From sequence record ON528725: a DNA stretch of 64,000 bases, one strand, 5' to 3'. The notes below the pieces were generated by a model. It was given only the letters and a program-made list of their open reading frames with translations. It did not search any database and had not been told where the DNA came from. This DNA comes from Shigella phage ESh15. Shown here in pieces: positions 37,938 to 45,255 of the stretch. Both the position numbers and the translations under genes were made by a program. Within the stretch, counting starts at the first letter, position 1. Every line of letters starts with the position of its first letter.

Positions 37938-37971
37938 AGTGTTTTCCTTTTAGTAATAATTTATATTTATG

Positions 37972-37993
37972 CCAAAAAGAGCCCGAAGGCTCT
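37972..37993 (-). terminator. Rho-independent terminator upstream of alt (minus strand)
   Basis: Minus-strand AGAGCC-TTCG-GGCTCT followed by TTTTTGG; overlaps the stop of the small upstream ORF. Confidence 0.65.
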
Positions 37994-39949: not shown

Positions 39950-40774
39950 TTAACAATTTATAGACCAAGTCCATTTAGACGAATCTAAAGGAAAGTTTTG
40001 AATCGTCCACCACGGCTGCATATCAGTTGGTCCTGGGGTTCGCCAGGTATATGGAGTACGTGTTGTCGAGGGGCCACCAATTTGATTAGGCCATGCGCCT
40101 GGACTTGTTGCACCAGATTCTTTAAGCAAATCCGCCAATCGTTTTAAAAGGTCTTCACGATCTGAATCTGAATTATTCTTAGGCAGAACCAAACGAGATT
40201 CAATATCATCCCATGTGTGTACACGTTGTGCAGTACGAGGAATATCATCACGTTCACCACGGGCCAACCAATAAATCGGTACATTAAGAATTTCCGCCGC
40301 ATGGTCACAGTGATGAGCTAAATCGTCAACATAACAAATCACGTTATATTTTGTTTTAGCTAGTTCGAATAATTGTTCTTTTGAAGAATCATGACCACAC
40401 ATCATTACTTCAGAGAAAGCGCCTGGGAACAAAGCATTCAAATTAAATTGTCTATTCAATCGGGCATCAATTGAATCACCTAGCGCCGTCACGGCTACAA
40501 AATTATAGTCTTCTTTTAGTTTATTGATAACTCGAAGAGCATCCGAATAAGGCGCTAAGTAACGAATAAAATCAGAGCGATTATATTTTTCTATTAATTG
40601 TTTACCAAGGTTATCGTCAGTATTGAACAGTTTACCAGGAGAAATAAATTTTTCGTCCTGAATCATTTTTAAAATATGTTCTAATGGAAGATTATATTTT
40701 TGGGCAAAATAAGGAAGTCCAGATTGCCAGCTTAAACATACACCATCAATATCAGTCAAAATAGTAGGCTTCAT
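39950..40774 (-). CDS. Putative HAD-superfamily hydrolase (position of T4 30.2)
   Basis: 274 aa; N-terminal ILTDIDGV fits HAD motif I; downstream VDD fits motif IV. Confidence 0.6.
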   Translation of the reverse strand: MKPTILTDIDGVCLSWQSGLPYFAQKYNLPLEHILKMIQDEKFISPGKLFNTDDNLGKQLIEKYNRSDFIRYLAPYSDALRVINKLKEDYNFVAVTALGDSIDARLNRQFNLNALFPGAFSEVMMCGHDSSKEQLFELAKTKYNVICYVDDLAHHCDHAAEILNVPIYWLARGERDDIPRTAQRVHTWDDIESRLVLPKNNSDSDREDLLKRLADLLKESGATSPGAWPNQIGGPSTTRTPYTWRTPGPTDMQPWWTIQNFPLDSSKWTWSINC

Positions 40775-41238
40775 AAAGAGTCTCTTAATAGGTTTAACAC
40801 ATCAATAAATTCAGCTTCGGTTAGTATTGTATCATCTTTTGTTAGGTGGCTAGCCATGCTGTGCTTCAAAATTTTTCCTTTAGAGGCTTGTAAGGCATCA
40901 CGAAACCCCTTATTTTGGATCGCGGCTTCAAAATATGCATTTGTGTATAATTCTTTCCACGCTTCAGAGTATCTTGAAAATGGAACTCCTAACCAGAAGA
41001 GAGTTCCACGGTCCTGAGCTCTTGCATAAGACCTTCCAGCTTGCTGTGCAGCCAATCCAGACAACCCAAATATACGTCTTTGTTGTTCAACATTTTTCAC
41101 CTTACATCCTTGGAGAAATCCTTCAAGACCTCCGAATTGAATACCATCCATAACAAAAGGCCATTGAGCAAAGTTACTTAATGCACATGACGGCCACTTG
41201 AAATTACTTCTTATTTCTAATTCAGACATCTTTAACAC
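40771..41238 (-). CDS. NADAR/YbiA-like (DUF1768) protein (position of T4 30.3)
   Basis: 155 aa; LSNFAQWPF..DGIQF resembles the E. coli YbiA FSNFAAWP..DG motif. Confidence 0.6.
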   Translation of the reverse strand: MLKMSELEIRSNFKWPSCALSNFAQWPFVMDGIQFGGLEGFLQGCKVKNVEQQRRIFGLSGLAAQQAGRSYARAQDRGTLFWLGVPFSRYSEAWKELYTNAYFEAAIQNKGFRDALQASKGKILKHSMASHLTKDDTILTEAEFIDVLNLLRDSL

Positions 41239-41434
41239 TTATAATTTCAACATCAGCCCAATGACCGTAACTAGGCAGACGGTCTTCAATAGATAAACCA
41301 CCGTCATTTTTAAGCATTTTAATTGTCTTGATAAACGGTTCATCCTGTGGATGAATAGGCGAGCAGTCAGTTACACGATAAGTAACTTCAATCATTTCCG
41401 TACCAAACAATTTCTGGATTAATTTATTCAACAT
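41222..41434 (-). CDS. Hypothetical protein
   Basis: 70-aa ORF in the co-directional early cluster. Confidence 0.5.
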   Translation of the reverse strand: MLNKLIQKLFGTEMIEVTYRVTDCSPIHPQDEPFIKTIKMLKNDGGLSIEDRLPSYGHWADVEIISVKDV

Positions 41435-41621: not shown

Positions 41622-41675
41622 ATTTTTCCACTTACTAAAGAAATCATTATACTCTAATCCATCCTTGGATGTAAA

Positions 41676-42293
41676 CTACTTAACGAAATTAATTTCTACC
41701 GGATGAACAACAGGTTGAGCAGTGATATATTGAGTAATTGCTTTCATGACTAGAGCTTCAGAACCAGGATTTTTCTCAACGAATTCACGTGCTTGGTTAT
41801 GAGCTTCAAGTTCACTTAGTAAACCGCTTCGTTGGCATCCACGGTCTTGAGTACCCTGTTCAGATAAAAAGACGACGATGTATTTTTCGTCATCATCATA
41901 CGGTTTAGACGGTTGAGCAAATGTTCCTTTACTTCCGAAAGGAGAGTTATGCCGCCACATATCACCGTGAGGAGTTTCAACCTTCGTGTATTCATGCGGT
42001 CCATTTTTCTTAGTTTCTTTCCATGGAACTTCATGGACCTTAGGGTTAGGACATTCAATAAAATGCTCATCTAAATCGGTAGAGAATATTAAAGTAAAAC
42101 AATTACTGAATTTACCAGCACCTGCCTGATAAATTTTACCTTCAGAAGTTCTAATTTCACAAACTGAGCCGGCATCAGTAACTTCTAAAACTTCAAAAGG
42201 CTCGATAAGGTCATATGAGAACATGTTTTTAAGGCGTGGAGTAATATCCCCATTTTTAAAATTCATTTTATAAAAAGTATTAACTTTAAACAT
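41676..42293 (-). CDS. Hypothetical protein, 205 aa
   Basis: ORF with GAGGAA RBS; preceded by an intercistronic hairpin at 42305-42320. Confidence 0.65.
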   Translation of the reverse strand: MFKVNTFYKMNFKNGDITPRLKNMFSYDLIEPFEVLEVTDAGSVCEIRTSEGKIYQAGAGKFSNCFTLIFSTDLDEHFIECPNPKVHEVPWKETKKNGPHEYTKVETPHGDMWRHNSPFGSKGTFAQPSKPYDDDEKYIVVFLSEQGTQDRGCQRSGLLSELEAHNQAREFVEKNPGSEALVMKAITQYITAQPVVHPVEINFVK

Positions 42294-43861: not shown

Positions 43862-43985
43862 TTTAAATTCTCAATTCGAGATAATATTTAGTAGCCACGT
43901 TCTTCTGAATTTCACCTTCTTTCGACAAGTCTCTCAGTTGTAGGCTACCGCTTAGAAGAGTGTTCTCTTCATATAGTTATTTATA

Positions 43986-44375: not shown

Positions 44376-44684
44376 TTACATAAGAAGCAAACGTTCTACC
44401 GGAGTACCATCAACCGAAATTACTTTATCAAGGCGGAAAGAACGCCACTGACCTAACTTGGTATCGAATGCTCGAACTGATTCACGAGGTTCATAACGAA
44501 CTTCTGTTGCCGGATTGTTATTTTCATATTTGACTTCAAGTTCATCGCGCGAAGCAAACATAGTGCGTACCTCACCGTTAGCCTTTTCAAATACAACACA
44601 ATGAACGCCTACAGACAGAATAGTTTTAATACGTTCACGAAGAACCATAGTTTCTTGTTCAGTTAAAATCATATTATTCACCAC
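44376..44684 (-). CDS. Hypothetical protein (position of T4 31.1/31.2)
   Basis: 102-aa ORF between cd and gene 31. Confidence 0.6.
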   Translation of the reverse strand: MVNNMILTEQETMVLRERIKTILSVGVHCVVFEKANGEVRTMFASRDELEVKYENNNPATEVRYEPRESVRAFDTKLGQWRSFRLDKVISVDGTPVERLLLM

Positions 44685-45255
44685 AAAAGTTTCGAATTTG
44701 TTCCCAATTCAGAGAACGAAGATTATTACGAGAGTACTGAATTACTTCAATACCAGCTTGTTTAAGAATGTCTGCCCAATTTTCAGGAGATCGGTCATAT
44801 AATTCTGCATATACAACCTTTTTAATACCTGACTGCGTAATAGCTTTAGTGCAATCAGGACACGGAGAAAGCGTCGTATATAACGTAGCACCTTCAATAG
44901 AATTACCTTTACGAGCTGCAAACAAAATTGCGTTCAGTTCCGCATGGATTTCGTTATTAGCAGACCATGCACTATGAGCGGCCCGGTGTTCTTTAGCCAA
45001 AACAAAATTATCGGCCCGTCCAAATGCTGTAGTGCCTTCTTTATGTCCAGCAACGATGACCGGACTTGGTTTATTCTTCAACCAGCCTTGTTCAGTAGCA
45101 TGGTCACAACAGTTTATACCACCTGAAGGAGAGCCATTATATCCAGTAGAGATAATGCGTCCATCTTTTTCAATGACTGCGCCAACTTTCCATGAACAAC
45201 ATTTTGATTCTTGAGAAATCAGATATGCAATCTGAAGGTATGTGCTAGCTTTCAT
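44674..45255 (-). CDS. cd: dCMP deaminase
   Basis: 193 aa as in T4; zinc-binding HAE and PCxxC motifs; near-identical to recalled T4 Cd. Confidence 0.95.
   Translation of the reverse strand: MKASTYLQIAYLISQESKCCSWKVGAVIEKDGRIISTGYNGSPSGGINCCDHATEQGWLKNKPSPVIVAGHKEGTTAFGRADNFVLAKEHRAAHSAWSANNEIHAELNAILFAARKGNSIEGATLYTTLSPCPDCTKAITQSGIKKVVYAELYDRSPENWADILKQAGIEVIQYSRNNLRSLNWEQIRNFCGE

Follow-up and report, generated by a model that had tools for sequence, protein, structure and literature searches.

An orthologue of T4 adfN (gene 30.3) in Shigella phage ESh15 encodes a stand-alone NADAR-fold protein predicted to counter the DarTG1 defence

The adfN locus of Shigella phage ESh15

The window analysed here, a stretch of 64,000 nt from Shigella phage ESh15 (sequence record ON528725), contains genes in the order typical of T4-type phages (alt, alt.1, 30 (ligase), 30.1, 30.2, 30.3, 30.4, 30.5 … rIII, 31, 31.1, cd), as found in T4 itself. 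Its nearest records by DNA are Tequatrovirus phages, for example CCU7 and the O157 typing phages, with 99.4% identity. In this region, the initial annotation had flagged an ORF of 155 amino acids (aa) without naming its strand; it lies on the minus strand (41238..40771). The ORF is real, but its start had to be corrected. The 155-aa version begins at an in-frame GTG at 41238, nine bases upstream of an ATG at 41229, and thereby gains three extra residues. We retained the ATG, which yields a protein of 152 aa, because the T4 annotation of gene 30.3 uses the equivalent codon and because it is the sole start that reproduces the published numbering of residues E36 and K43. The protein matched the Pfam family PF08010 (Phage_30_3) with a score of 232 bits (E = 1.9e-69; gathering cut-off 36) that covered all 138 profile positions, and it was 97% identical over all 152 residues to T4 gp30.3. 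The substitutions with respect to T4 (window residue first: K11R, E89P, I120V, M125I, and H128G) affected no catalytic residue, and at the DNA level 48 nucleotide differences translated into 36 codons with synonymous-only changes and 5 non-synonymous ones. Judged from these comparisons, the ORF is a real gene under purifying selection and the orthologue of T4 gene 30.3. It is not new, since the same gene has already been published as adfN (for anti-DarT factor NADAR), the name that we use hereafter.

The likeness to T4 extends to the geometry of the start, the neighbours (30.4 upstream and 30.2 downstream, followed by the ligase gene), the residues E36, K43, and H123, and the C-terminal helix. 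Among these neighbours, 30.4 had no Pfam match, 30.2 was HAD-like, and 30.1 corresponded to DUF3045. The adfN start lies within an overlap with the end of 30.4 and is not preceded by any strong Shine-Dalgarno sequence, so that the two genes are probably translationally coupled. Two differences from T4 were also apparent. First, the flanking genes were far more diverged than adfN, with identities of 49% for 30.4 and 70% for 30.2. Second, the reading frame of 30.3', an internal out-of-frame ORF annotated in T4, was interrupted by a stop codon: its equivalent in the window (40866..41093, minus strand) was cut short by a stop at the end of 34 codons and contained many substitutions. Since this frame is broken while that of 30.3 is 97% conserved, 30.3' appears doubtful as a gene and is probably not a real one.

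Other observations concerned the wider neighbourhood. An ORF of 205 aa (41676..42293, minus strand) occupies the place of the 95-aa gene 30.6 of T4; it matched phrog_17531 (E = 4.8e-142), whose function label is unknown, but no Pfam family, and was found in locus L002, but neither in T4 nor in any of the other close relatives that were compared. Genes 31.1 and cd adjoin and overlap by 11 nt (44376..45255, minus strand); gene 31.2, located between them in T4, is missing here. An exact late-promoter consensus, TATAAATA (43978..43985, minus strand), directly follows gene 31 and precedes rIII; this sequence occurs 18 times in the whole window versus 7.1 expected by chance.

Table 1 Coordinates of adfN, its flanking genes and the associated features in the window
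Feature	Coordinates	Strand	Basis and remarks
adfN (T4 gene 30.3) CDS	40771..41229	-	152 aa + stop from ATG; PF08010; 147/152 identical to T4 NP_049816
N-terminal NADAR motif LSNFAQWPFVMDG, residues 17-29	41143..41181	-	Translation; aligned to YbiA FSNFAAWPIKVDG in profile alignment
Glu36 codon, catalytic	41122..41124	-	Invariant in 55 homologues; codon verified
Lys43 codon, catalytic, E-x6-K spacing	41101..41103	-	Invariant in 55 homologues; codon verified
His123 codon, just after last beta-strand (model strand 120-122)	40861..40863	-	Invariant in 55 homologues
C-terminal alpha-helix, residues 138-151, intact	40777..40818	-	Model helix; identical to T4 there
30.4 stop/adfN start overlap, 8 nt (ATGTCTGA)	41222..41229	-	Sequence; T4 geometry identical
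ATGA overlap, adfN stop/30.2 start (TTATGAAG junction)	40771..40774	-	Sequence
Gene 30.2	39950..40774	-	HAD-superfamily enzyme; coupled to adfN via ATGA overlap
Gene 30.4	41222..41434	-	70 aa; stop overlaps adfN start
Sigma-70-type promoter-like site TTTACA-18-TATAAT, 11/12 matches	41646..41675	-	In 54-nt gap upstream of 30.5; best-scoring in 10.5 kb; consensus match only
alt.1-alt intergenic gap, 55 nt	37938..37992	-	Hairpin + T5, late-promoter-like motif, Shine-Dalgarno ahead of alt

NADAR fold and active site

The structure of AdfN was predicted with high confidence by AlphaFold2 (pLDDT 94.4), and the top three Foldseek matches of this model in the PDB were all NADARs: YbiA (2b3w), the P. 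nicotianae NADAR with ADP-ribose (8bau), and the G. lovleyi NADAR (8bat). The NADAR/YbiA-like fold proposed in the initial annotation was thus borne out, as was the resemblance to YbiA of the LSNFAQWPF..DG-type block near the N-terminus, which corresponds to LSNFAQWPFVMDG and aligns with FSNFAAWPIKVDG of YbiA. Here, positions A16 to F20 and F25 were invariant across 55 homologues, and D28 and G29 nearly so. A profile built from these 55 homologues retrieved E. coli YbiA (2b3w) with E = 0.0011, the alignment running across the SNF…DG motif and the E-x6-K block (SEHYFQAQK in YbiA). Searched as a single sequence, the window protein had no match among PDB sequences and did not match the Pfam NADAR model (PF08719) at E ≤ 1, PF08010 being the sole Pfam family that it matched; 19 of the 55 family members matched this model individually (best E = 1.5e-7). 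On the basis of its fold, its active-site residues and the family-level profile match, AdfN belongs to the NADAR superfamily, within the phage gp30.3 branch. This agrees with earlier work: de Souza and Aravind (cited in PMC11543638) used comparative genomics to class phage NADARs as a His-bearing branch, and bioinformatic analysis had recognized T4 30.3 as a NADAR before it received the name AdfN (PMC11825919).

The catalytic residues help to place AdfN with respect to other NADARs. Glu36 is equivalent to E43 of the P. nicotianae NADAR and to E88 of the E. coli C7 NADAR, and its E-x6-K spacing with Lys43 is that of E88/K95 in the C7 protein (PMC11543638). The residue at the last strand distinguishes the branches, being His in the phage gp30.3 branch, Glu in YbiA, and Asp in the DarT1-linked NADARs (PMC11125620, PMC11543638). 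An active-site comparison with YbiA therefore held for the Glu/Lys block (E36, K43), which was aligned, but not for the last strand, where AdfN has His123 instead of the Glu of YbiA. Despite their similar folds, AdfN therefore falls outside the YbiA subfamily; the pairwise sequence identity between the two proteins was 18–20%. YbiA itself is encoded in a LexA-controlled host operon and has been implicated in the detoxification of riboflavin intermediates and in swarming (PMC11125620).

AdfN also differs from DarG1, the NADAR antitoxin associated with DarT1 (BC4488 family, E. coli C7 NADAR, and Geobacter lovleyi 8bat), which has a catalytic Asp at the last strand where AdfN has His and is larger (219 aa for 8bat versus 152 aa). 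DarG1 adjoins DarT1 and rescues uninfected E. coli from this toxin, whereas AdfN is an orphan and the T4 protein provides no such rescue. We found no DarT1 gene beside adfN; the only nearby ADP-ribosyltransferase was Alt, a match to the exoenzyme-type model PF03496 of Pfam that is not annotated as DarT and lies 2.8 kb away in what looks like a separate unit. AdfN is, then, neither a member of the YbiA subfamily nor an antitoxin linked to DarT in a DarTG1 system.

Predicted activity against DarTG1

The function of the T4 protein has been established by experiments. In vitro, the purified T4 protein hydrolyses ADP-ribose attached to guanine in DNA but not the thymine-linked form (PMC11125620, published in 2024). 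In a mapping study, Johannesman et al. (Nat Commun 2025; PMC11825919) identified 30.3 as the gene through which T2 and T4 resist DarTG1, and renamed it adfN. They showed that deletion mutants of T4 and T2 no longer plaque on DarTG1 cells and that AdfN is both necessary and sufficient for resistance, that E36A and K43A each weaken AdfN-T4 in vivo, and that purified AdfN, but not its E36A variant, removes ADP-ribose from DarT1-modified DNA. In the same study (PMC11825919), no interaction between AdfN and DarT1 was detected by two-hybrid assay and DarTG2 was not countered by AdfN-T4. The DarTG1-sensitive phage RB69, whose own 30.3 allele is frameshifted and has lost the last 15 residues, and with them the C-terminal helix on which full activity depends, was rescued by adfN-T4 in trans (PMC11825919). 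An independent transposon screen of T4 on DarTG1 cells (HIDEN-SEQ) likewise pointed to 30.3, with a log2 fold change (log2FC) of -7.25 and an adjusted p = 0.

In the case of the window gene, we consider it very probable (roughly 0.9) that it encodes AdfN, a stand-alone NADAR-fold DNA ADP-ribosylglycohydrolase countering DarTG1, by carrying over the function of the T4 orthologue. This extension to the window copy is based on its full length, its preserved C-terminal helix, the presence of every invariant residue and the 97% identity with T4. During infection of a host equipped with DarTG1, the DarT1 toxin would put ADP-ribose on guanine bases of the phage DNA and block its replication. AdfN, produced early in infection, would then cut the N-glycosidic bond between ribose and guanine, releasing ADP-ribose and restoring the base, such that replication could resume. 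It would act as an orphan antitoxin that does not bind the toxin, and thymine-linked ADP-ribose (the DarT2 modification) would not be removed. Of the two roles suggested initially, countering DarT-type toxins is what the 97%-identical T4 orthologue does experimentally (PMC11125620, PMC11825919) and may be expected of the window protein as well, while a role in NAD/ADP-ribose metabolism is not what the T4 experiments show.

Alternatively, the substrates of AdfN might be soluble ADP-ribose derivatives or small ribosyl N-glycosides instead of DNA, such as NAD-derived immune signals or the riboflavin intermediates of YbiA-type enzymes. We regard this as quite unlikely, since in vitro the T4 protein strips ADP-ribose from DNA guanines and phages that lose it show a phenotype specific to DarTG1; moreover, AdfN has a His at the last strand, where the YbiA subfamily is defined by a Glu. 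An additional activity on small molecules might nevertheless exist.

Enzymatic activity as a DNA ADP-ribosylglycohydrolase nevertheless seems not to be the whole mechanism. Outside infection, AdfN-T4 fails to protect E. coli against DarT1 (PMC11125620, PMC11825919), and it barely rescues the phages T5 and Bas25, with a full effect only in T-even infection (PMC11825919), which together suggest that a T-even factor or context is needed. Two other NADARs, AdfN-Bas32 and AdfN-Bas60, from T5-like and Vequintavirinae phages (PMC11825919), resemble AdfN in being phage-encoded, orphan, guanine-specific, and active against DarTG1. However, they belong to other NADAR branches, were acquired independently, and do not need the T-even context.

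Operon structure and the position of alt

The genes 30.5, 30.4, 30.3, 30.2, 30.1, 30, and alt.1 are co-directional and tightly packed, with overlaps of 4–22 nt or a gap of 9 nt between them. The sigma-70-type promoter-like site found upstream of 30.5 is a candidate early promoter for the array formed by 30.5, 30.4, adfN, 30.2, 30.1, and the ligase gene. This tight arrangement and the location of the site just upstream of 30.5 make the co-transcription of adfN and the ligase gene plausible, so that the proposal of a common operon with DNA ligase was reasonable for the co-directional array from 30.5 to alt.1, where no gap exceeds 9 nt.

The same proposal had included alt, for which it holds only loosely: alt is co-directional with the array, but a hairpin trailed by a run of T and a motif resembling a late promoter lie between it and alt.1. 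The hairpin (GAGCC-TTCG-GGCTC followed by TTTTT) had a folding energy of -10.5 kcal/mol and was not listed by a terminator scan. It is followed in the window by CATAAATA, where T4 has TATAAATA, an exact match to the late-promoter consensus; the window has no exact copy of this consensus upstream of alt. Both hairpin and motif are shared by T4 and two further related loci, including one whose 30.3 is RB69-like, and although the window stem differs from that of T4 (AGGCC…GGCCT), it still pairs. With these elements in the alt.1-alt gap, alt appears to form a late transcription unit of its own. Late synthesis would be in keeping with the packaging of the Alt protein into the virion.

The vicinity of alt, co-directional and located ~2.8 kb downstream of adfN, could also be read as an indication that AdfN is an eraser for the phage's own Alt (or ModA/ModB), reversing or tuning the ADP-ribosylation of host proteins or RNA. 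Several observations make this highly improbable. The conserved terminator-like hairpin and the late-promoter-like motif cut alt off from the array, and on DarTG1 cells insertions in alt had a log2FC of -0.01, in contrast with the strong depletion of 30.3. In addition, none of ~60 loci of the gp30.3 family beyond T4-like enterobacterial phages had an alt homologue within 10 kb. As for substrates, the tested NADARs acted on guanine-linked and not on thymine-linked DNA ADP-ribose, in assays whose substrates did not include the Arg-linked protein ADP-ribose that Alt produces. We accordingly rejected Alt as a functional partner of AdfN, given its screen value, its apparently separate late unit, and the lack of co-occurrence in distant loci. 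The proximity of adfN and alt is a matter of T4 synteny and not a functional link, and the position near alt, which had been taken as a clue to function, does not serve as one, since alt insertions in T4 have no DarTG1 phenotype.

Genes 30.2 and 30.4 as possible helpers

Given the apparent need of AdfN for a T-even factor or context, its immediate neighbours deserve attention. In gene 30.2, residues D8, D10, K132, D150, and D151 were invariant and T96 nearly invariant; we take them to fit the four HAD catalytic motifs. Its AlphaFold model (pLDDT 84.8) had 5'(3')-deoxyribonucleotidases among its nearest folds, together with other HAD folds, and the protein is claimed by no curated family, with Pfam HAD_2 matching only at E = 0.02. 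Its C-terminal tail (about residues 195–274) is Trp/Pro-rich, variable in length and predicted with low confidence. The synteny 30.3-30.2-ligase persists in T4-like enterobacterial phages down to 43–48% identity, and 30.2 is absent near the majority of the distant genes of the gp30.3 family. This absence and the result for T4 insertions in 30.2 on DarTG1 cells (log2FC -0.12, p = 0.61) led us to reject 30.2 as a required partner of AdfN.

The case of 30.4 is less simple. The HIDEN-SEQ screen of T4 on DarTG1 cells yielded just two significant genes, 30.3 and 30.4, the latter with a log2FC of -1.79 (adjusted p = 0.014), a result that the main text of the HIDEN-SEQ paper does not mention. The transposon used carries no terminator but introduces stops in each of the three frames, and the authors of the screen argue against widespread polar effects in their data set. 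The effect of 30.4 is probably due to disrupted translational coupling, which would lower AdfN levels. This is the simplest explanation, as the adfN start lies inside the stop region of 30.4 without a strong Shine-Dalgarno sequence, and it fits an effect that is partial. Alternatively, 30.4 could be the missing T-even-specific helper of AdfN, an idea that we find rather unlikely. Homologues of 30.4 were detected solely in close T-even phages, and a phmmer search at E ≤ 10 revealed no homologue of 30.4 or 30.5 beside distant family members, a restriction that would fit the full action of AdfN-T4 only in T-even infection. However, the low identity of the window 30.4 with that of T4 (49%), next to an adfN that is 97% identical, marks a mosaic boundary at the gene junction and argues against a tight, specific partnership between AdfN and 30.4. 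Overall, the public screen speaks against a helper role for either 30.2 or alt, and a weak case can still be made for 30.4.

Distribution and integrity of adfN in phages

At a threshold of at least 80% DNA identity, adfN was carried by 673 phage records, and an exhaustive profile search retrieved 1653 cluster representatives at E ≤ 0.001. NCBIfam has no model for gp30.3, and PHROGs assigns it to phrog_652, of unknown function.

Some members of the family depart from the canonical form. Named T-even-type phages (SV76, UGJNEcP4, vB_Eco_NR1, and RPN226) encode truncated or fused 30.3 products of 86–126 aa (proteins P0004-P0007, P0014, P0017, and P0051). Among metagenome representatives, gp30.3-type NADAR domains were joined to unrelated domains in P0206, P0248, P0256, P0290, P0314, and P0334, which may be either true fusions or gene-calling artefacts; the fusion partners were BspA-type leucine-rich repeats, a prolipoprotein diacylglyceryl transferase, a GDSL lipase, and an FtsW/RodA-like membrane domain. 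One metagenome protein of 480 aa had three stretches matching the gp30.3 profile, of which Pfam counts two.

From the sequences compared, 30.3 seems to have been broken repeatedly in nature, as in RB69. That the window gene is itself a decayed or inactive allele of this kind, retained by synteny alone, is the least probable reading: broken alleles are common in relatives (the RB69 frameshift and the clusters P0007, P0014, P0017, and P0051, at 86–126 aa), but the window adfN is full length with all invariant residues and an intact C-terminal helix, and its ratio of synonymous to non-synonymous changes with respect to T4 is 36:5.

Implications

The window copy leaves the mechanism known from T4 unchanged, and the practical gain is one of annotation, since most of the 673 DNA-matched phage records label as 'hypothetical protein' a gene that can be named adfN. 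With its intact adfN allele, ESh15 is predicted to resist DarTG1, and phages with broken 30.3 alleles would be predicted to be sensitive to it. AdfN provides a clear case of a phage-borne orphan antitoxin enzyme that repairs the phage's own DNA after its modification by a host toxin.
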